64,000 bases of DNA from Escherichia phage vB_EcoM_SQ17: sequence record MW882907; one strand, given 5' to 3'. A program made the translations under genes and the position numbers. Below are positions 52,284-63,034 of the stretch, one piece after another. How positions within the stretch are numbered: the stretch's first letter is position 1; every line of letters starts with the position of its first letter. The notes under the pieces are model-generated. The model saw only the letters and a program-made list of their open reading frames with translations. It was not told the DNA's origin and made no database searches.

Positions 52284-52291
52284 TATAAATA
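52284..52291 (+). promoter_or_regulatory. T4 late promoter core TATAAATA for gene 34
   Basis: Exact TATAAATA about 30 nt upstream of gene 34 start. Confidence 0.65.
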
Positions 52292-52321: not shown

Positions 52322-55300
52322 ATGGCCGACATCAAACGTAAGTTCAGAGCCGAAGACGGTCTGGACGCCGGTGGCGACAAGATTGTTAACGTAGCATTAG
52401 CCGACCGTACAGTAGGTACTGATGGCGTAAACGTTGACTTCCTGGTACAAGAAAACACCGTTCAAGTATATGATTCTACGCGTGGATATAACAAAGGATT
52501 TGTTGTTCTTTATGACAACCGTTTATATCAAGCAATAAATGATATCGTGTCTCCTTCCGGGGCATTTAACCTTTTACAATGGCGTGCAGTTCGTACCGAT
52601 GCACAATGGATAACTGTTGCTTCTGGGACTTATCAACTTTCTTCAGGTGAATCGATTTCGGTTAACACTGGTGCCGGCAATGATATGGTTTTCACATTGC
52701 CAAATACGCCGGTTGACGGTGATACTGTTGTTTTGGCTGATATTGGTGGAAGAACCGGGACAGTTAAAGTACAGATTAACGCGTCTGTGCAGAGTATTTT
52801 AAACTTTAGAGGTGAACAAGTTCGTACAGTTTTAATGACGCGCCCACGTTCACAACTATTGTTTGTGTTTAGTAATCGTTTGTGGCAGATGTATATCATT
52901 GATTACGGTAAAGAATCAATCACTGTTACACCTGCGGCACCATATCAAGCACAAGCAAATGATTTTATCGTTCGTCGTTTTACTAGTGCAGCACCAATCA
53001 ACATTACACTTCCACGTAATGCTAACAATGGTGATATAATCAGCCTAGTCGATTTAGATAAATTAAACCCACTGTATCATACAATTGTTAAAACATTTGA
53101 TGATACAACGTCTATTGGTGAAGTCGGGACTCATATTGCCGAAGGCAGAAATGACTCTGACACGTTTTTTGTTTTTGATGCTGCAAATAGTTTATGGCGT
53201 ATATGGGAAGGCGACCAGAAATCGCGTCTTCGTATTATCCGTGCGGATTCAAATATTCGTCCAAATGAAGAAGTTCTTATTTTTGGCACAAATAACGCTA
53301 CAGCCGGAACTATTAATCTTACGCTGCCTTCCGGAATTTTGAGTGGTGACACTGTTAAAATTTCAATGAACTACATGCGTAAAGGCCAAACAGTAAAAAT
53401 TAAAGCTGCCGAAGGTGATACAATTGCTTCTTCTGTCGCATTACTTCAGTTCCCTAAACGTTCCGAATATCCACCTGACGCTCAATGGGTCTCTGTTACT
53501 GAACTAGAATTCAATGGCACTACTTCATATGTTCCTGTATTAGAATTAGCGTATATCGAAGACACCGTTGCTGGTACACGTTATTGGGTTGTTAAACAAA
53601 ACGTCCCTACGGTAGAACGTGTTGATGCTGGAACTGATGCTACACGAGCTCGTTTAGGTGTTATTGCTCTTGCTACTCAAGCGCAAGCAAATGTTGATTT
53701 AGAGAATACTCCGGCTAAAGAAGTTGCTATTACTCCTGAAACGTTGGCAAATCGTACAGCAACTGAAGCTCGACGTGGTATCGCTAAAATTGCTACAACA
53801 GCACAAGTTAACCAGAATACCGATTTTGCATTCCAAGACGACTTGATTATTTCTCCTAAGAAATTGAACGAACGTACAGCAACTGAAACCCGTAGAGGTG
53901 TTGCTGAAGTTGCAACACAGGCTGAAACTAATGCTGGAACAGATGACACCACTATTATTACTCCTAAGAAATTGGATGCCCGTCAAGGTTCTGAAGTTTT
54001 ATCCGGTATTGTAAAATACACATCTACGACTGGTACTACAGCTGCTACTATTCGCGGTAATGCCGGGACTAACGTTTATAACAAAGCCGTAGATAATTTA
54101 ACTATTTCTCCAAAGGCTCTTGACCAGTATAAAGCTACCCCTACTCAGCAGGGTGCAGTAATTCTTGCTATTGAAAGTGAAGTTATCGCTGGCGAATCAC
54201 AAGCCGGTTGGGCTAATGCTGTAGTGACCCCTGAAACTCTGCATAAGAAAACTTCTACTGATGGACGTATTGGTTTAATTGAAATTGCTACGCAAGCAGA
54301 AACTAACACTGGAACTGATTATACTAGAGCAGTAACGCCTAAGACGTTAAATGATAGGAAAGCTACGGAAGGATTATCTGGCATAGCCGAAATTGCTACG
54401 CAAGTTGAATTTGATACTGGAACTGACGATACTCGTATCTCGACTCCACTGAAAATTAAAACTCATTTTGATTCTTCTGACCGTACCAGTGTTAATTCTG
54501 ATTCCGGACTTATTGAAGAAGGAACCTTGTGGAACCATTATACTCTTGATATTTCTAAAGCAAATGAAACACAACGTGGTACACTTCGCGTAGCGACCCA
54601 GGCAGAATCTAATGCAGGAACTTTAGATGATGTTCTTATTACTCCTAAAAAGCTTTTAGGGACTAAGTCCACTGAAACGTCTGAAGGCGTAATTAAGGTT
54701 GCTACTCAGGCTGAAACTGTAACAGGAACTTCTGCTAATACTGCTGTATCACCTAAGAATTTAAAATGGATTGTTCAATCAGAACCATCATGGACTGCTA
54801 CTACGGCGATTCGTGGATTCGTTAAAACTTCATCCGGTTCTATTACATTCGTTGGTAATGATACGGTTGGTTCAACACAATCTTTAGAATCATATGAGAA
54901 AAATAGCTATGCGGTATCACCATATGAATTAAACCGTGTACTTGCTAACTACTTACCGTTGAAAGCTAAAGCAGCTGATAGTAATTTGTTAGATGGTCTA
55001 GATTCTCTTCAGTTCATCCGTAGAGACATCGACCAGACGGTTAATGGTTCTTTAAGTCTTACTAAACAGACCAACCTGAGTGCTCCTTTAGTATCTACAA
55101 GCACTGCTTCTTTTGGTTCCGAAGCATCTGTTACTCGTAGATTAACTCTTAACGATTCTAGCGGTTCCGAAATAGTTTTCACTAAAGGAACCCAATCTCT
55201 TAGTAATAAAGAGAATTTCGTTGTTAGAGCATGGGGTAATAGCGCTACAGATGGTGCCCGCGATACAGTATTTGAAGCGGGTGACGAAACAGGATACCAT

Positions 55301-56155
55301 TTCTATTCTCAGCGCGCTGCTGATAATAGAGTATCATTTAATATTAATGGAACACTTTATTCAACAGGTATTGTTTCTACAAATGGATTAAATGTTACAG
55401 GTGTTTCTACCTTTACCGGGCCTATTAGTGCTACAGGCGAAATTGTTTCTAGTTCTCCTATTGCATTCAGAGCTATTAACGGTAACTATGGTGTTATGCT
55501 TTATAATGCTGGTAACAGTTCTTATATTGCATTAACTAACTCAGGTGACCAGACCGGGACGTTTAATAACTTACGCCCTATCACGATTAACAACGCCACA
55601 GGCTTAGTTCGTCTTGACAATGGTGTTCAAATCACGAGTGGTGCAACAATAACTACTGGTGGGTTAACTGTAAATAACAGAATTATTTCTAACGGCGTTA
55701 AAACTGCTACTGTTTATACCGATAAACCAACAGCTTCTACTGTAGGTTTTTGGTCTATTGACATTAACGATTCTGCTGTATATAGCCAATTCCCTGGATA
55801 CTGGACGCGTGATAACAAAGGTAACCGTGACCAAGAAATTAAATATCCTGGTACTTTGACTCAATTCGGCAATAGCTTAGATTCGCTTTATCAGGATTGG
55901 ATTTGTTATCCTACAGGTGCAAATGGCGGTAGCATTCGATATACTCGTACCTGGCAGAAAAATAAAGATGCTTGGACTTCATTTGCAATGGTATTTGATA
56001 GTGGCAACCCACCTTCACCTAGCGATGTCGGTGCTATCCCATCTGATAATGCTGTTATTGGAAACCTTACTATTCGAGACTTCTTACAATTAGGAAATGT
56101 GAGAATTGTTCCAGACCCGGTTAACAAAACAGTTAAATTTATATGGGTTGAATAA
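52322..56155 (+). CDS. 34: Long tail fibre proximal subunit gp34
   Basis: 1277 aa (T4 gp34 1289 aa); N-terminus MADIKRKFRAEDGLDAGGDKI; internal repeated ATQAE/TNAGTDDT motifs. Confidence 0.96.
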   Translation: MADIKRKFRAEDGLDAGGDKIVNVALADRTVGTDGVNVDFLVQENTVQVYDSTRGYNKGFVVLYDNRLYQAINDIVSPSGAFNLLQWRAVRTDAQWITVASGTYQLSSGESISVNTGAGNDMVFTLPNTPVDGDTVVLADIGGRTGTVKVQINASVQSILNFRGEQVRTVLMTRPRSQLLFVFSNRLWQMYIIDYGKESITVTPAAPYQAQANDFIVRRFTSAAPINITLPRNANNGDIISLVDLDKLNPLYHTIVKTFDDTTSIGEVGTHIAEGRNDSDTFFVFDAANSLWRIWEGDQKSRLRIIRADSNIRPNEEVLIFGTNNATAGTINLTLPSGILSGDTVKISMNYMRKGQTVKIKAAEGDTIASSVALLQFPKRSEYPPDAQWVSVTELEFNGTTSYVPVLELAYIEDTVAGTRYWVVKQNVPTVERVDAGTDATRARLGVIALATQAQANVDLENTPAKEVAITPETLANRTATEARRGIAKIATTAQVNQNTDFAFQDDLIISPKKLNERTATETRRGVAEVATQAETNAGTDDTTIITPKKLDARQGSEVLSGIVKYTSTTGTTAATIRGNAGTNVYNKAVDNLTISPKALDQYKATPTQQGAVILAIESEVIAGESQAGWANAVVTPETLHKKTSTDGRIGLIEIATQAETNTGTDYTRAVTPKTLNDRKATEGLSGIAEIATQVEFDTGTDDTRISTPLKIKTHFDSSDRTSVNSDSGLIEEGTLWNHYTLDISKANETQRGTLRVATQAESNAGTLDDVLITPKKLLGTKSTETSEGVIKVATQAETVTGTSANTAVSPKNLKWIVQSEPSWTATTAIRGFVKTSSGSITFVGNDTVGSTQSLESYEKNSYAVSPYELNRVLANYLPLKAKAADSNLLDGLDSLQFIRRDIDQTVNGSLSLTKQTNLSAPLVSTSTASFGSEASVTRRLTLNDSSGSEIVFTKGTQSLSNKENFVVRAWGNSATDGARDTVFEAGDETGYHFYSQRAADNRVSFNINGTLYSTGIVSTNGLNVTGVSTFTGPISATGEIVSSSPIAFRAINGNYGVMLYNAGNSSYIALTNSGDQTGTFNNLRPITINNATGLVRLDNGVQITSGATITTGGLTVNNRIISNGVKTATVYTDKPTASTVGFWSIDINDSAVYSQFPGYWTRDNKGNRDQEIKYPGTLTQFGNSLDSLYQDWICYPTGANGGSIRYTRTWQKNKDAWTSFAMVFDSGNPPSPSDVGAIPSDNAVIGNLTIRDFLQLGNVRIVPDPVNKTVKFIWVE

Positions 56156-56163
56156 GAGGTTAT

Positions 56164-57288
56164 ATGGAAAAATTTATGGCAAGGTTTGGACAGGGATACG
56201 TCCAAACGCCGTTTTTATCGGAAAGCAATTCAGTTAGATTTAAGCTAAGTATAGCGGGTTCATGCCCGCTTTCAACAACTAATCCATATATTTTGTTCCA
56301 AAACGAGCCTTTAGGGTTGCAGTCTTTTGGTATTGGACTAAATGTTAGGGTGATAAATCCGGAAAATGGAACTATAGTTGATAGTAAATTATACAATTTT
56401 GCGCCTACAAATAATGCAACTTCAGCTGCATTTATTTCGTTTGTTAATACATACGCAGATAATTTCATTTTCGCATTTATTTCTAATAACAAATTTAATT
56501 TGCCACCAGAAATAATTGAATGGTTTAAAGCTGCTGGGAGTTCAGTTATACCGTCAATTGAAGTTGCTAGTCTTGTTGATATTTCATATTCAGCGTTTTA
56601 TGTTTCAGGTAAAAATACTATTGCATTAGAACACATAAAATACAGTAATAAGAAAACAATTTCTGATTACGCAACTCCATTAGATATTGTATATGACTCT
56701 ATTGCTGATATAGGTGCTACCGGCTATCCTAGACGTACATATGAAGCTCTAGAAACGTTTTTATCTCCTGTTGGAGGAACTAACAATGAAATAAAAAGGA
56801 TGCCTACATCATCCCTTGTTACTCCTATCGCAAACTATGGATTAAAGCCTACAGATTTTCTTTATTTGAAATTTCAATTAATGGCTGATGAAGAATTATT
56901 AGAGGAAGGAACCACAAGACTTTCAATTCGTTTCTTTAAGTCTCCATCTAGCTCTCCTATATCATCTAAAGATATAAACTTTGATGGAACTGCCGGGGAG
57001 TGGAAGCTATATGAAGAATACGTTGAAATACCAGCTGAAGCTGATGGCTTTACAGTATATTGTTACCGTACGGCCTCAGTCGGTCAAGGTGGACTAAGAA
57101 ATGTTATTTTCACTGAAGTATCATGTAACGGAAGTATAGCAAAACCCGCCGAGTTTGGTATAAACGGTATTCGTGCTAATTACATTGATGAATCATTAAC
57201 CGGTAATGATATAATGGACTTGCCTACTCAGTTATCTAACGACACAGGTAAGGTATTTGGGCAGGAATTTAAAGAGTACACAGAATAA
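56164..57288 (+). CDS. 35: Long tail fibre hinge protein gp35
   Basis: 374 aa (T4 gp35 372 aa); gene order. Confidence 0.9.
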   Translation: MEKFMARFGQGYVQTPFLSESNSVRFKLSIAGSCPLSTTNPYILFQNEPLGLQSFGIGLNVRVINPENGTIVDSKLYNFAPTNNATSAAFISFVNTYADNFIFAFISNNKFNLPPEIIEWFKAAGSSVIPSIEVASLVDISYSAFYVSGKNTIALEHIKYSNKKTISDYATPLDIVYDSIADIGATGYPRRTYEALETFLSPVGGTNNEIKRMPTSSLVTPIANYGLKPTDFLYLKFQLMADEELLEEGTTRLSIRFFKSPSSSPISSKDINFDGTAGEWKLYEEYVEIPAEADGFTVYCYRTASVGQGGLRNVIFTEVSCNGSIAKPAEFGINGIRANYIDESLTGNDIMDLPTQLSNDTGKVFGQEFKEYTE

Positions 57289-57313: not shown

Positions 57314-57321
57314 TATAAATA
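57314..57321 (+). promoter_or_regulatory. T4 late promoter core TATAAATA for gene 36
   Basis: Exact TATAAATA about 27 nt upstream of gene 36 start. Confidence 0.65.
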
Positions 57322-57347: not shown

Positions 57348-58004
57348 ATGGCCGATTTAAAAGCCGGAAGTACAGTTGGTGGTTCCGTCATATGGCATCA
57401 AGGCAATTTTCCTTTAATGCCAGCTGGCGATGACATCCTATATAAAACATTTAAATTATACACCGAATATAACAAGCCAAAAGCGGCTGATAACGATTTC
57501 GTATCTAAAGCAAATGGTGGGACATATCTCAAAAAGGTAATCTTTAACGAAGGTGTTGCAGTCAAAACAGCAGATGACCAAACGAATGGTATTTTTTCTG
57601 GCGGTGGTGACGCCGCGACATTCGACCAAACAAACATGGATATTGTTTCGTGGTATGGTGTTGGGTTTAAATCATCTCAAGGTACAGGTGAAAGAACTGT
57701 TGTAATTGATACTCGCACTGGTAATATAAGTTCTAAAGGCGTTATTGAAGCATCTCAATTCAGAGCCACAACGTTAGCACCTTTAAATAATTACGACCTT
57801 ACTCGCAAAGATTATGTTGATAGTCAAATAAATACAGTTAATGCTAATGCAAACAGTCGTGTACTCCGTTCAGGAGATACGATGACTGGCGCGCTAACCG
57901 CCCCAAATTTTTTCTCACAGAATCCTGCATCTCAACCATCGCATGTTCCACGATTTGACCAAATTGTTATTAAGGATTCTGTTCAAGATTTCGGCTATTA
58001 TTAA
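57348..58004 (+). CDS. 36: Long tail fibre distal connector gp36
   Basis: 218 aa (T4 gp36 221 aa); gene order. Confidence 0.9.
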   Translation: MADLKAGSTVGGSVIWHQGNFPLMPAGDDILYKTFKLYTEYNKPKAADNDFVSKANGGTYLKKVIFNEGVAVKTADDQTNGIFSGGGDAATFDQTNMDIVSWYGVGFKSSQGTGERTVVIDTRTGNISSKGVIEASQFRATTLAPLNNYDLTRKDYVDSQINTVNANANSRVLRSGDTMTGALTAPNFFSQNPASQPSHVPRFDQIVIKDSVQDFGYY

Positions 58005-58012
58005 GAGGACTT

Positions 58013-61000
58013 ATGGCTACTTTAAAACAAATACAATTTAAAAGAAGCAAAACTGCAGGAGCACGTCCTGCTGCTTCAGTATTAGCCGAAGGTGAATTGG
58101 CTATAAACTTAAAAGACCGTGTACTTTTTACTAAAGATGACCAAGGAAATATTATTGATCTGGGTTTTGCTAAGGGTGGTAGTATTGACGGGAATGTTAT
58201 TCATACTGGCAATTATAACCAAACTGGCGATTATACTTTAAATGGCACCTTCACTCAGACAGGTAATTTTAATTTAACTGGTATTGCTCGAGTAACTCGC
58301 GATATTATTGCCGCCGGGCAGATTATGACCGAAGGCGGAGAAATTATTACAAAAAGTTCAGGTACATCACATGTTCGTTTTTTCGATGGCAATAACCGCG
58401 AACGCGGAATCATTTATGCCCCGGCTAATGATGGATTAACTACACAAGTACTTAATATCAGGGTTAAAGACTACGCCGCTGGTAGAGAAAGCACTTATGC
58501 ATTTTCAGGCAGTGGCCTATTTACTTCACCCGAAGTATCAGCACGGAAATCTATTTCGTCTCCGCAAATTCTGACCGATAAAGTTATTACAAATGGGAAG
58601 AAGACGGGCGATTATGATATATCTTCATTAGCAAATAATAATTCTGACACAGATAAAAACTATTTGCGCGTTGTACGTACCGACCCAGCGGCCGCAATGC
58701 TCCATGAAATTTGCGAAAATAACGGCATCAGTTGGTATTCTGGTTCAACCCCTACTGATTACATGCTGTCTTTTGCTTATTCAGGTGGTTTTCAAGCTGG
58801 GCATTCGATTGCAGTAGGTATGGAATCAGGGCCTATAACATATTCAGCCTTAGGTAAAGGTTCTATTGCTATTGGTGATAATGACACCGGGTTAAAATGG
58901 CACCAGGACGGATATTTCTATACAGTAAACAACGGGACAAAAACTTTCATCTATGGTCCAGGAGAAACGCAAAGCCTTAGAAAAATGGTTATGGCTTATT
59001 CTCCAGATGGGCTTCTTATGACAACGCCACCGACAGAAAACTATGCATTAGCCACTGTTGTTACTTACCATGATAATAACGCGTATGGTGACGGTCAAAC
59101 TCTTTTAGGTTATTATCAGGGCGGTAATTATCATCACTATTTCCGCGGTAAGGGTACCACAAACATTAATACTCATGGCGGTTTGTTAGTTACTCCTGGT
59201 AATATTGATGTTATTGGCGGTTCTGTTAATATAGATGGTAGAAATAATTCTTCTACACTAATGTTTAGAGGCAACACAACAGGATACAGCTCGGTTGATA
59301 ATATGGATATTAAAGTTTGGGGTAATACGTTTGTTGATCCAAGCGGAGGTATCCGTAAAAACATTATGGAAATTTCTGATGCAACTAGCTGGATGAGCTA
59401 TATTCAAAGACTTACTACTGGCGAAGTAGAAATGAACGTTAATGGTTCATTTGAATCATCTGGTGTTACTGCTGGAGATAGAGGAGTTCACACAACAGGT
59501 GAAATTTCATCTGGAGCAGTGAATGCTCTTCGTATTTGGAACGCAGATTATGGAGCCATTTTTAGACGTTCAGAAGGAAGTCTTCATATTATTCCAACTG
59601 CTTATGGCGAAGGCAAAGATGGCGATATCGGTCCACTTCGCCCGTTTAGTATGGCTTTAGACACCGGTAAAGTTACTATTCCAGATTTACAATCAAGTTA
59701 TAATACGTTTGCTGCTAACGGTTATATTAAATTTACTGGTCATGGCGCAGGCGCTGGTGGTTATGACATTCAATATGCTCAAGCGGCTCCTATTTTCCAG
59801 GAAATTGATGATGATGCTATAAGCAAATATTATCCTATTGTTAAACAGAAGTTTTTAAATGGTAAAGCCGTTTGGTCTTTAGGTACTGAGATTAGTTCAG
59901 GTACATTCGTTATTCATCATCTGAAAGAAGATGGTTCACAAGGCCATACGTCTCGTTTTAATCAAGACGGTACTGTTAACTTCCCGGATAATGTTCTGGT
60001 CGACGGTGATATTAACATGAAAGGCGTGATGACTTTTGACGCCGGACGTTTAGGATCACGAGATTATTTTAAATTTAACCATTGGGGTGATAGTAATAAT
60101 GCTCGTGATAACATCATCCAGTTAGAAGATAGTCAAGGCGCTCATTTTTCCACTGAACGTACTTTAGCGACAGGTGCAATTAAAACTCGTTTCTTTGGCG
60201 AAACATTTACTGATGGTACATTATACCTAAATCAGATGAATAATAGCTCTGAACGATTCCATATCAATAATTTGGGAAATTCAGAAGCTGGTCGCGCGGC
60301 AGTGATGGAAGTCGGTGATTCCAAAGGTTATCACTTCTATACAGAACGCAGGACAGATAACAGTTTGACGTTTGATGTTGCTGGCACTTTTACCGTGCAT
60401 GGATCTAGCGGGATCACTATCAAAAACTCTGCTGGTGCTCGCCACATCTGGTTTAAAGATGATAGCGAATCGGAAAAGGCTGTTATCTGGGCTACAGATG
60501 AGGGTATTTTACATATACGAAATAATTATGGGGGTTCATTTAGTCATCACTTCCAGGGTGCAATGATTCTAGCGGGAGAGCGTGTTCCGTATAATAGTGA
60601 ATACGCTCTTATCCGTGGTAATATTTCCGGTGGTGCATGGGTAGACTGGCGAGATCGTCCGGCTGGATTGTTGGTAGACTGTCAGGACTCACGAACTCAA
60701 GCATATAACATTTGGAAAGCTACTCATTGGGGCGAACAGCACCTTGCGGCGATGGGTGTTCATGCTGGCGGTGGTAATCCTCATGTTGTATTGCATGTGG
60801 GTGGGAATGATTATGCATTTGCATCTAACGGTGATTTTACTGCTGGTGCTGCTGTATATTGTAACGACGTTTATATTCGTTCTGACCGTCGTCTGAAAAT
60901 TAATGTTGAAGACTACGAAGAGAATGCGGTGGATAAGGTAAATAAACTCAAAGTTAAAACCTATGATAAAGTTAAATCTCTTTCTGACCGCGAAGTTATC

Positions 61001-61234
61001 GGCCATGAGATTGGTATTATCGCACAGGATTTGCAAGAAGTATTACCGGAAGCTGTTAGCACTTCTAGTGTCGGATCTCAGGATAACCCAGAAGAAATTT
61101 TAACAATTTCAAACTCTGCTGTGAACGCGCTTTTAATTAAGGCCATTCAGGAAATGAGCGAAGAAATTAAAGAATTGAAAACGCCTCTCTTTACTAAAAT
61201 TGCTCGCAAAATTAGTAAATATTTTAAATTCTAA
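58013..61234 (+). CDS. 37: Long tail fibre distal subunit gp37 with C-terminal intramolecular chaperone (S74-like) domain
   Basis: 1073 aa; N-terminus MATLKQIQFKRSKTAGARPAASVLAEGELAINLKDR as T4 gp37; C-terminal ~120 aa with SDRRLK.NV motif typical of self-cleaving chaperone domains. Confidence 0.92.
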   Translation: MATLKQIQFKRSKTAGARPAASVLAEGELAINLKDRVLFTKDDQGNIIDLGFAKGGSIDGNVIHTGNYNQTGDYTLNGTFTQTGNFNLTGIARVTRDIIAAGQIMTEGGEIITKSSGTSHVRFFDGNNRERGIIYAPANDGLTTQVLNIRVKDYAAGRESTYAFSGSGLFTSPEVSARKSISSPQILTDKVITNGKKTGDYDISSLANNNSDTDKNYLRVVRTDPAAAMLHEICENNGISWYSGSTPTDYMLSFAYSGGFQAGHSIAVGMESGPITYSALGKGSIAIGDNDTGLKWHQDGYFYTVNNGTKTFIYGPGETQSLRKMVMAYSPDGLLMTTPPTENYALATVVTYHDNNAYGDGQTLLGYYQGGNYHHYFRGKGTTNINTHGGLLVTPGNIDVIGGSVNIDGRNNSSTLMFRGNTTGYSSVDNMDIKVWGNTFVDPSGGIRKNIMEISDATSWMSYIQRLTTGEVEMNVNGSFESSGVTAGDRGVHTTGEISSGAVNALRIWNADYGAIFRRSEGSLHIIPTAYGEGKDGDIGPLRPFSMALDTGKVTIPDLQSSYNTFAANGYIKFTGHGAGAGGYDIQYAQAAPIFQEIDDDAISKYYPIVKQKFLNGKAVWSLGTEISSGTFVIHHLKEDGSQGHTSRFNQDGTVNFPDNVLVDGDINMKGVMTFDAGRLGSRDYFKFNHWGDSNNARDNIIQLEDSQGAHFSTERTLATGAIKTRFFGETFTDGTLYLNQMNNSSERFHINNLGNSEAGRAAVMEVGDSKGYHFYTERRTDNSLTFDVAGTFTVHGSSGITIKNSAGARHIWFKDDSESEKAVIWATDEGILHIRNNYGGSFSHHFQGAMILAGERVPYNSEYALIRGNISGGAWVDWRDRPAGLLVDCQDSRTQAYNIWKATHWGEQHLAAMGVHAGGGNPHVVLHVGGNDYAFASNGDFTAGAAVYCNDVYIRSDRRLKINVEDYEENAVDKVNKLKVKTYDKVKSLSDREVIGHEIGIIAQDLQEVLPEAVSTSSVGSQDNPEEILTISNSAVNALLIKAIQEMSEEIKELKTPLFTKIARKISKYFKF

Positions 61235-61240
61235 CAACAA

Positions 61241-61258
61241 GGGGGAAATGCCCCCTTT
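61241..61258 (+). terminator. Stem-loop (GGGGG-AAATG-CCCCC then TTT) downstream of gene 37
   Basis: Hairpin with short T-run; gene 38 follows. Confidence 0.5.
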
Positions 61259-61270
61259 GGAGTATAAATT

Positions 61271-62056
61271 ATGGCAGTAGTTGGAGTTCCTGGCTGGATT
61301 GGAAGTTCAGCCGTAAATGAAACGGGTCAGCGCTGGATGAGTCAAGCAGCTGGTCAATTAAGATTGGGTGTTCCTTGCTGGATGAGTCAATTTGCAGGTC
61401 GCTCAAGAGAAATTATTCATACACTTGGAGCAGACCATAACTTCAATGGTCAATGGTTCCGAGATAGATGTTTTGAGGCAGGTAGTGCACCTATAGTGTT
61501 TAATATCACCGGAAATTTAGTATCATATAGTAAAGATGTTCCTTTATTCTTTATGTACGGCGATACGCCAAATGAATATGTTACTTTGAATATTCATGGT
61601 GGAGTTCATATGTGGGGACGAGGTGGTAACGGTACTGTAAACGGAAACCCAGGCACAAATGGCGGCGATGTAATCCAAAATGATATCGGCGGAAGACTTC
61701 GTATTTGGAACTATGGCGTTATTGCATCAGGTGGCGGCGGTGGTGGTGCAGTGTCATTACGGAATAGCTGGGCGCCAAATGCTACAGCAGGTGGCGGTGG
61801 TGGTAGACCATTTGGCATCGGCGGTGGCGGCGTTAATTGGCCTGGTGGTAATGCTAGTTATGACTCCCCTGGCGGTGCCGGTTACACTTCCCAATTCGGC
61901 GGTGGCAATGGCGGTGATGCTGGAGGTCGTGGCGGAGATGGATGGGGTAATCACTTATCTAGATCTAGATCTGGTGGTGGTGCTCCTGGCAGAGCAGTAT
62001 TCGGAAGTTCACCGTCATGGGGTGCTACAGGCACAATCTACGGCTCCTGGATTTAA
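61271..62056 (+). CDS. 38: T2-type receptor-recognising adhesin gp38 (glycine-rich motifs)
   Basis: 261 aa; N-terminus [22 protein letters not shown] and multiple poly-Gly islands separated by variable segments, as in T2/T6 gp38. Confidence 0.9.
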
Positions 62057-62074
62057 ACGATAATACCTCTCAAT

Positions 62075-62082
62075 TATAAATA
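62075..62082 (+). promoter_or_regulatory. T4 late promoter core TATAAATA for holin gene t
   Basis: Exact TATAAATA directly upstream of t. Confidence 0.6.
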
Positions 62083-62089
62083 TTGATAA

Positions 62090-62761
62090 ATGGGAGGTAA
62101 TATGGCAGCACCAAAAGTATCATTTTCGCCTAGTGATATTTTATTTGGGTTGCTAGACCGCATTTTCAAAGATAACGCCTCTGGAAATATTCTTATTTCA
62201 AGAGTTGCTGTTGTAGTTCTTTTGTTCCTAATGGCACTAATATGGTACAAAGGGAATATTTTTATGGATTATTACGTGAGGTCGAAATATGATACTTACA
62301 CAGAAGTAATTCAAAAAGAAAGAAATACACGATTTGAATCTGCGGCTTTAGAGCAACTACAAATAGTCCACGTCACATCAAGGGCGGATTTTAGTTCGGT
62401 GTATTCTTTCAGACCTAAAAATCTAAATTATTTCGTCGACCTTATTGCGTATGAAGGTAAGTTACCTAGCACAGTAACTGAAAAATCTATGGGAGGATTT
62501 CCTGTTGATAAAACGACAGCAGAATATTCGGTCCATTTAAGTGGACTTCACTTTACTTCTAAAACAGATTTTGCTTTCTTACCTACCAAATCAAAAACTC
62601 CGGAACTGGCGTATATGTATAGTTGTCCTTACTTCAATTTGGATAACATATATGCGGGAACTGTTTCTATGTATTGGTATAAGGGGTCGGATGTGTTAAA
62701 TGAAGAACGCTTGGCTGCAATATGCAACCAAGCAGCAAGGATATTAGGGCGGGCTAAATAA
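62090..62761 (+). CDS. t: Holin T
   Basis: 223 aa (T4 T 218 aa); N-terminus ..SFSPSDILFG.LDR.FKDNA.G..L.SRVAVV.LLF.MA..WY matches T4 holin; single TM. Confidence 0.95.
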   Translation: MGGNMAAPKVSFSPSDILFGLLDRIFKDNASGNILISRVAVVVLLFLMALIWYKGNIFMDYYVRSKYDTYTEVIQKERNTRFESAALEQLQIVHVTSRADFSSVYSFRPKNLNYFVDLIAYEGKLPSTVTEKSMGGFPVDKTTAEYSVHLSGLHFTSKTDFAFLPTKSKTPELAYMYSCPYFNLDNIYAGTVSMYWYKGSDVLNEERLAAICNQAARILGRAK

Positions 62762-63034
62762 TTAGTTGTTAGAATACATCGTCAAATGGCGATAAATATT
62801 TTCAAAACCTTCATTGAATTCACTAATCAGTGTTTTCTTTTCTTCGGCAGTTAAATTTGTAATTAGTTTTCTGAACGAATTCTGATTTAGCTGCCGACCA
62901 TCTTTTTTAATTCCAATCTCATTCAAGAATCCGATGAAATTTGCTCGGTCTTCAACAATATCTTCCCTCGAGAATTTAATCAAAATAGAAGCAACCGTAA
63001 TAATTTCACGTACAATTTCAATATCTTTATTCAT
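62762..63034 (-). CDS. asiA: AsiA anti-sigma70 factor
   Basis: 90 aa; near-identical to recalled T4 AsiA (MNK.I..VREIITVASILIKFSREDIVE.RANFI.FLNEIG). Confidence 0.96.
   Translation of the reverse strand: MNKDIEIVREIITVASILIKFSREDIVEDRANFIGFLNEIGIKKDGRQLNQNSFRKLITNLTAEEKKTLISEFNEGFENIYRHLTMYSNN

Follow-up and report, generated by a model that had tools for sequence, protein, structure and literature searches.

Sequence analysis of the long-tail-fibre tip of Escherichia phage vB_EcoM_SQ17: a gp37 with a C-terminal Peptidase_S74-like domain and a predicted gp38 adhesin

Introduction

Which protein recognizes the host at the end of the long tail fibre of Escherichia phage vB_EcoM_SQ17 (GenBank MW882907, genus Mosigvirus)? 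The stretch of the phage genome analyzed here (64,000 nucleotides, referred to as the window, with positions counted from its first letter) carries on its plus strand a long-tail-fibre module of T-even type, identified from open reading frames and Pfam matches, in which the gene order is g34-g35-g36-g37-g38-t, followed by asiA. At issue is whether the product of g38 acts as an assembly chaperone of T4 type, which is missing from the virion and leaves receptor binding to the tip of gp37, or as a T2-type adhesin that is itself attached to gp37. The two proteins match the GenBank entries QVW29393.1 (gp37) and QVW29394.1 (gp38) exactly, and GenBank names the latter “long tail fiber assembly catalyst”. 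A first-pass annotation of the window had instead proposed a T2-type fibre tip starting at 60850; the features it claimed are all found at the place given, 60850 itself being an arbitrary point within gp37 (at about amino acid 946).

SQ17 was isolated from pig-farm sewage on E. coli O157:H7, and lysed all 16 of the E. coli strains on which it was tried, O157:H7 as well as enterotoxigenic (ETEC) strains among them, and none of the Salmonella (PMC9389114). The closest record in the phage collection that we searched is the BASEL phage ChristianSchoenbein (Bas46, MZ501056), with a nucleotide identity of 97.9% over positions 60000–62100 and of roughly 94% over 40000–64000. We propose that the tip is very probably the receptor-recognizing long-tail-fibre end of a T2/S16-type T-even phage, consisting of gp37 and a gp38 adhesin, and we found nothing in the sequence that contradicts this explanation.

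Results and discussion

Family and architecture of gp38

The two genes and the domains assigned to their products are the following.

58013–61234, plus strand: g37, 1073 amino acids (aa)
58013–60880, plus strand: mature part of gp37 (predicted), aa 1–956, distal half-fibre shaft with DVYIR as the last beta-strand
60881–61234, plus strand: gp37 intramolecular-chaperone domain, aa 957–1073, 117 aa and the stop codon
61271–62056, plus strand: g38, 261 aa
61271–61396, plus strand: gp38 attachment domain, aa 1–42, with the Trp “prongs” W9, W22 and W37
61409–62056, plus strand: gp38 receptor-binding domain, aa 47–261 and the stop codon, with a polyglycine-II sandwich and, as its core, a beta-helix, both by homology
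61616–61984, plus strand: Gly motifs alternating with hypervariable loops, gp38 aa 116–238, the predicted OmpF contact surface
gp38 loops by homology: A, aa 122–127; B, aa 163–172; C, aa 186–190; D, aa 205–209; E, aa 223–235

The g38 gene lies directly 3' of g37, at a spacing of 36 nucleotides, and 5' of the holin gene t, an order shared with Bas46, Bas47, FL33 and RB69, and its open reading frame encodes exactly the 261 aa that had been claimed. Two Pfam families were matched by gp38 at E≤0.01, namely GP38 (PF05268; E=1.2e-81, 274.1 bits against a cut-off of 25, aa 47–261, profile positions 1–218 of 218) and Gp38_N (PF21721; E=1.4e-20, 73.4 bits against a cut-off of 25, aa 1–42), and no tail-fibre assembly-chaperone family is present at that threshold. 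The PHROG matches are adhesin or host-specificity families, including PHROG 2056 (“tail fiber protein; host specificity”; E=1.8e-110). As for proteins of known structure, the best match is the receptor-binding domain of PP01 gp38 (PDB 9V85; E=1e-73, aa 38–260, 252 bits), and S16 gp38 (6F45_D), which is seen on the gp37 tip in 6F45, aligns end to end (E=1.5e-47, aa 5–261, 166 bits).

These matches decide against a T4-type assembly chaperone. The GenBank name of QVW29394.1, which several relatives also bear, speaks for such a role, as does the suggestion that T2-type gp38 may aid fibre assembly before staying attached (PMC7917993). However, gp38 belongs to the adhesin families PF05268/PF21721 and PHROG 2056, it is a close homologue of the crystallized PP01 domain, and it aligns over its length with an adhesin observed in place on its fibre. 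Since its matches at E≤0.01 include no assembly-chaperone family, membership of the T4-type family can be ruled out, and we regard the chaperone reading as extremely improbable. Judged by family assignment, the “assembly catalyst” label is a T4-derived mislabel, unsuited to a member of an adhesin family. The proposed distinction between a T2-type adhesin and a T4-type chaperone is upheld by the same family matches and by the near-full-length alignments to 9V85 and 6F45, and the description as T2/T6-type holds for the architecture but not for the phage itself, which is a Mosigvirus of the RB69 group and not a Tequatrovirus like T2 and T6.

A conserved N-terminal region for attachment to gp37 had also been claimed, and is present both as the Gp38_N match and in three Trp residues shared with S16: W9, W22 and W37 fall in the alignment on the S16 gp38 Trp prongs, three in number, which in the structure dock the adhesin into the gp37 trimer tip (PMC6851490). 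Across 11 aligned adhesins from Mosigvirus, Tequatrovirus, Dhakavirus and Gelderlandvirus, the residue at W37 never varies, and conservation at W9 and W22 is 90% or higher.

Glycine makes up 24.9% of gp38 overall and 35% of aa 116–261, with runs of six (154–159), five (174–178) and four (184–187) residues and two runs of three. We carried the limits of the loops over from PP01 gp38 (PMC12892980) by alignment, so that they are approximate in hypervariable stretches, and calculated column entropies from 8 of the 11 adhesins, leaving out near-identical OmpF-type duplicates. Loops A–E have entropies of 1.34–1.72 bits. The beta-helix core is lower, at about 0.5 bits, and of four Gly motifs measured, three (GRGGNG, GGGGGG and GGGGGRPFG) have only 0.00–0.09 bits; the fourth (aa 212–222) reaches 0.91 bits. 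The variation is concentrated between the Gly motifs, as had been predicted from the letters alone, with the fourth motif as the least conserved.

The C-terminal domain of gp37

The distal fibre subunit itself, gp37, matches PHROG 1699 (“long tail fiber protein distal subunit”, E=0). Its C-terminus had been described as S74-like, and a Pfam profile search returned Peptidase_S74 (PF13884, “chaperone of endosialidase”) at aa 957–1015 with E=1.3e-14 (54.6 bits against a cut-off of 22, profile positions 1–57 of 58), which places the domain at the extreme C-terminus (the last 117 aa) of the 1073-aa subunit. The same region aligns with the chaperone domain of S16 gp37 (6F45_A), with the terminal stretch aligned to the end of that domain, and weakly with the phage tail fibre 8jov. 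A direct match to human MYRF (7dc3), an S74-type protein known to cleave itself, is weak (E=0.013), with SDRRLK aligned to the MYRF counterpart motif. The motif that had been given as SDRRLK.NV reads SDRRLKINV, occupies aa 957–965, and begins at nucleotide 60881; the 117-aa tail ends ...AIQEMSEEIKELKTPLFTKIARKISKYFKF.

At the junction between shaft and chaperone domain the sequence is ...YCNDVYIR^SDRRLKINVEDYEEN..., where the caret marks the predicted cleavage site. Ser957 and Lys962, in S957-D-R-R-L-K962, are as far apart as the Ser and Lys of the S74 dyad. The motif DVY(I/V)R^SDxR is kept in 7 of 7 gp37 sequences compared, as is the Ser, and the dyad Lys is found in six of them; the seventh, an old T6 record that also contains an X, has Asn at this position. 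Autocleavage of the last 113 residues of S16 gp37 is reported to occur at DLNVS^SDRRIKK and to expose the docking face for gp38, and in the Yersinia fPS phages the gp37 site has been placed at DVYIR^SDGRLKI, where the authors propose that three DVYIR strands form a flat triangular gp38 docking face (PMC7917993). The SQ17 motif is in register with both the S16 site and the predicted fPS site. Because DVYIR^SD is the same motif as at the fPS site, cleavage is predicted between R956 and S957 with release of 117 residues, and we conclude that the C-terminal domain of gp37 probably cuts itself off at this bond. It has long been established that gp37 of T2 type is processed at its C-terminus and that gp38 acts as an adhesin; the Henning laboratory reported in the 1980s that about 120 C-terminal residues are removed from T2 gp37.

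Since cleavage of SQ17 gp37 is itself deduced from homology, the S74-like domain might alternatively be kept as a C-terminal knob that does not cleave, with gp38 binding elsewhere or only transiently. Against this, SQ17 gp37 keeps both the Ser/Lys dyad and the SDxRxK spacing, the S16 homologue is reported to be autocleaved (PMC7917993), and a retained domain would block the docking face seen in 6F45, which makes a permanent knob very unlikely.

Apart from the C-terminus, aa 414–557 of gp37 (59252–59683) match the trimerization domain of gp34 (Pfam PF21446; PDB 4uxe, 5nxf and 9x3r), and one module therefore serves both half-fibres.

Receptor prediction

If gp38 is the adhesin, its receptor may be predictable from its relatives. 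SQ17 gp38 is identical to that of Bas46 at 99% of the aligned positions, to that of FL33 at 98%, and to that of Bas47 at 94%; identity to RB69 gp38 is 91%, where the N-terminal allele differs and the receptor-binding domain is the same. Bas46 and Bas47 use OmpF as primary receptor and the deep core of lipopolysaccharide (LPS) as secondary receptor (PMC8594841, supplementary table), and the ompF dependence of Bas47 has been complemented (PMC8594841). FL33 and FL34 are OmpF-dependent, with an extra effect of tolC that may be indirect (PMC12032242). The gp38 of fPS-2 matches the C-terminal gp38 segment used as query, and this phage uses OmpF and the LPS core in Yersinia (PMC7917993). It has further been reported that the receptor is predictable from Gp38 phylogeny (PMC12032242).

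Because five phages with the same receptor-binding region (Bas46, Bas47, FL33, FL34 and fPS-2) have been typed in experiments as OmpF-dependent, OmpF is the likely receptor of SQ17 gp38, and the best-supported candidate. The first-pass annotation had named a panel of OmpC, OmpF, Tsx and FadL, from which the 94–99% identity to OmpF-typed adhesins narrows the candidate to OmpF.

Mosaic structure of the tip

We compared the nucleotide sequence of the tip with those of Bas46, Bas47, FL33, ESh27 and RB69 in sliding windows. A block at 59943–61400 runs from the distal shaft of gp37 through the chaperone domain to about codon 40 of g38. It is 97–100% identical to Bas46, is also near to FL33 (with local dips) and to ESh27, and can hardly be aligned at all with Bas47 or RB69; T6 is likewise similar in the chaperone domain and at the start of gp38. 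The gp38 receptor-binding domain (61400–62056) is 88–99% identical among all five OmpF-type phages. In this comparison the tip of gp37, its chaperone domain and the attachment domain of gp38 co-vary as one block, as would fit a physical interface between gp37 and gp38. By the same comparison, the gp38 receptor-binding domain is a separate, independently exchanged cassette, and modular exchange has already been described for the family.

The central gp37 shaft (58500–59050) is a patchwork. Positions 58880–58970 are 66–72% identical to Bas46 and 84–95% identical to ESh27, and positions 58589–58760 are about 90% identical to Bas46 and approximately 50–65% identical to ESh27, Bas47, FL33 and RB69. 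Several recombination joints are therefore indicated in this part of the shaft.

A private insertion in loop E

One difference from the relatives lies within a predicted receptor loop:

61957–61972, plus strand: ATCTAG tandem repeat of 2.7 copies, in which an extra 6-bp unit adds Ser-Arg to gp38 loop E

The repeat has 2.7 copies in SQ17 versus 1.7 in Bas46, Bas47, FL33, ESh27 and RB69, and loop E accordingly reads SRSRS in SQ17 versus SRS in these relatives. The extra unit is absent from each of the 43 phage-collection sequences that match over the full length, and from every IMG/VR contig. The ATCTAG duplication is the only private feature of the SQ17 tip with respect to the relatives examined. 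The inserted Ser-Arg aligns at Tyr230 of PP01 gp38, a residue that cross-links to OmpC (PMC12892980). The other changes in gp38, written from SQ17 to Bas46, are R164Q (in loop B), I183L and S199A.

Alternatively, the architecture could be as described while the receptor is not, or not only, OmpF, with the changes in loops B and E shifting or broadening the specificity, for example towards OmpF variants of O157:H7 or ETEC strains or towards another porin. The changes relative to Bas46 do lie in or beside predicted receptor loops, with the insertion where PP01 has Tyr230; PMC12892980 cites single loop mutations in Ox2 gp38 that are reported to change receptor use, and the lysis of all 16 E. coli strains could be taken in the same direction. 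Set against these points are the high identity to OmpF-typed adhesins, the reported reliability with which Gp38 phylogeny predicts the receptor (PMC12032242), and the fact that Bas47 and FL33, which likewise show a few differences from Bas46, are still OmpF-dependent. Since these two phages tolerate such small differences and keep OmpF, we consider it unlikely that the insertion or the substitutions cause a real shift of specificity. The more specific proposal that the slippage-type ATCTAG duplication and Arg164 are a recent host-range adaptation, by which other OmpF variants or a second porin would be accepted and which would add to the lysis of 16/16 strains, is doubtful.

Proposed assembly and docking of the tip

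With OmpF as the probable receptor, the observations can be combined into the following model. (i) Three gp37 chains would trimerize with the aid of their own C-terminal Peptidase_S74 chaperone of 117 residues. (ii) In the folded trimer, each chain would cut itself between Arg956 and Ser957, with Ser957 as the nucleophile and Lys962 as the base, and the chaperone would leave. (iii) Cleavage would expose a flat trimeric face made of the DVYIR strands, (iv) onto which a single gp38 monomer may dock by inserting W9, W22 and W37 into three equivalent pockets. (v) The remainder of gp38 is predicted to form a beta-helix and, from its Gly-rich segments, a polyglycine-II sandwich, the five distal variable loops of which would bind a host outer-membrane protein. 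(vi) This receptor is most likely the porin OmpF, and irreversible adsorption would then need the LPS core, probably via the short tail fibres.

Several points weigh against this model. For SQ17 itself, we infer the cleavage, the docking stoichiometry, the location of gp38 in the virion and the receptor from sequence. A single-sequence AlphaFold2 prediction of gp38 reached a pLDDT of 31.8 and a pTM of 0.20, so the fold is predicted from sequence homology, and a search of NCBIfam gave no matches for gp37 or gp38, for which that library has no model. The residues R164 (loop B), I183 and S199, together with the Ser-Arg insertion in loop E, distinguish the adhesin from that of Bas46 and could shift its specificity. 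Finally, the paper describing SQ17 credits the short tail fibre for host range and nowhere mentions gp38 (PMC9389114).

Comparison with known systems

The closest known counterpart is Bas46, which has the same gene order, a gp37 with 94.5% identity, and a gp38 annotated as “adhesin tip for distal long tail fiber”; Bas47, FL33/FL34, ESh27 and phiC120 are named alongside it as its group. Bas46 differs by the three gp38 substitutions, by the lack of the Ser-Arg in loop E, and by the mosaic central gp37 shaft.

In the gp37–gp38 complex of S16 (PDB 6F45; Dunne et al. 2018), gp38 has the three domains that are predicted for SQ17 gp38, the Trp-prong domain, the beta-helix and the polyglycine-II sandwich with hypervariable loops, and gp37 carries a chaperone domain of the same type, reported to cleave itself, with an S-D-R-R-x-K motif. 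S16 differs in that it binds Salmonella OmpC, in its cleavage site (DLNVS^S as compared with DVYIR^S predicted for SQ17), and in the length of the chaperone (113 versus 117 aa), and its gp38 is a far weaker match than that of PP01, as reflected in the bit scores above. PP01 gp38 (9V85; mBio 2026, PMC12892980) has the beta-helix, the polyglycine-II sandwich and the loops A–E that are predicted for SQ17 gp38, but the loop sequences are unlike throughout and the phage binds OmpC of E. coli O157. In PP01 gp38, the N-terminal attachment domain is of the other allele type, which it shares with RB69 and AR1.

The founding description of this architecture comes from the adhesins of T2, T6, Ox2 and K3 (Henning laboratory, 1987 onwards; Trojet et al. 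2011), and covers the conserved N-terminus, the glycine islands, the hypervariable segments that determine host range and the C-terminal processing of gp37. T6 gp38 is 70–71% identical to that of SQ17, and the T6 gp37 chaperone falls into the SQ17 allele group, unlike those of Bas47 and RB69. T2 and T6 differ from SQ17 in receptor (Tsx for T6, FadL/OmpF for T2) and in having a Tequatrovirus rather than a Mosigvirus backbone.

More distantly, the S74 domains of endosialidase type and MYRF have the same Ser-Lys dyad with its 5-residue spacing, followed by a C-terminal segment that in SQ17 gp37 is presumably helical. Compared with the endosialidases, the passenger in SQ17 is a T-even gp37 shaft, and cleavage would additionally make a docking site for a second protein.

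Taken together, this is an architecture first described in the 1980s, for which structures were solved in 2018 and 2026 and receptors have been typed by experiment in near-identical phages; it is already known and not new. The practical value of the analysis lies in annotation and prediction, and it opens no new biological question. Its by-products are a corrected annotation of SQ17 gp38, the prediction of OmpF and the LPS core as receptors, the predicted cleavage site at Arg956/Ser957, and the mapped loop insertion. For SQ17 as a biocontrol phage, gp38 and not the short tail fibre would be the likely primary host-range determinant. With OmpF as the predicted receptor, loss or down-regulation of ompF is the expected route to resistance in food use, and gp38 loops A–E would be the site for host-range engineering.

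Transcription signals and neighbouring genes

The remaining genes of the module and the short signals around g37 and g38 are listed below.

52322–56155, plus strand: g34
56164–57288, plus strand: g35
57348–58004, plus strand: g36
62090–62761, plus strand: open reading frame of holin t
62762–63034, minus strand: asiA
61241–61255, plus strand: GGGGG-AAATG-CCCCC hairpin, between the gp37 stop and the gp38 Shine-Dalgarno sequence
61259–61262, plus strand: gp38 Shine-Dalgarno sequence GGAG
52284–52291, 57314–57321 and 62075–62082: T4-type late-promoter boxes TATAAATA, just upstream of g34, g36 and t, respectively

The intergenic segment 61241–61262 is about 100% identical to those of Bas46, FL33 and ESh27. 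Candidate roles for the hairpin would be to stabilize the transcript or to couple translation. The fold of the hairpin is weak (z=-1.5), with no significant gain over shuffled sequences, and a terminator scan of 60800–62800 matched the hairpin site on the minus strand only, with scans at background. Sigma-70-like sites in 60800–62800 are likewise at background (4, as compared with 5.9 expected from shuffles).

Late-promoter boxes are more frequent: the window has 19, and shuffled sequences would lead one to expect 7.4. No exact box stands in front of g37 or g38, and this suggests a common transcript for g36, g37 and g38. The sequence TATAAATT at 61263–70 was considered as a late promoter for gp38 and rejected, as it abuts the gp38 ATG and the transcript would begin inside the gene; it is more likely that gp38 is co-transcribed, starting at the TATAAATA box that lies upstream of g36 at 57314.

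Downstream, the assignment of holin t is supported by Phage_holin_T in Pfam (E=5.6e-89). Its first ATG (62090) lies only 7 nucleotides past the TATAAATA box at 62075–62082, and GGAGG at 62093–62097 precedes a second ATG at 62102, which opens a 219-aa holin (MAAPKVSFSP...) as annotated in Bas46. These signals suggest that the true start of t is probably 62102.

Upstream, aa 58–131 of gp35, the proximal hinge connector (56335–56556), match the Pfam family ILEI (interleukin-like EMT inducer, the FAM3 fold) just above threshold, with 30.2 bits against a cut-off of 27 and E=6.6e-07.

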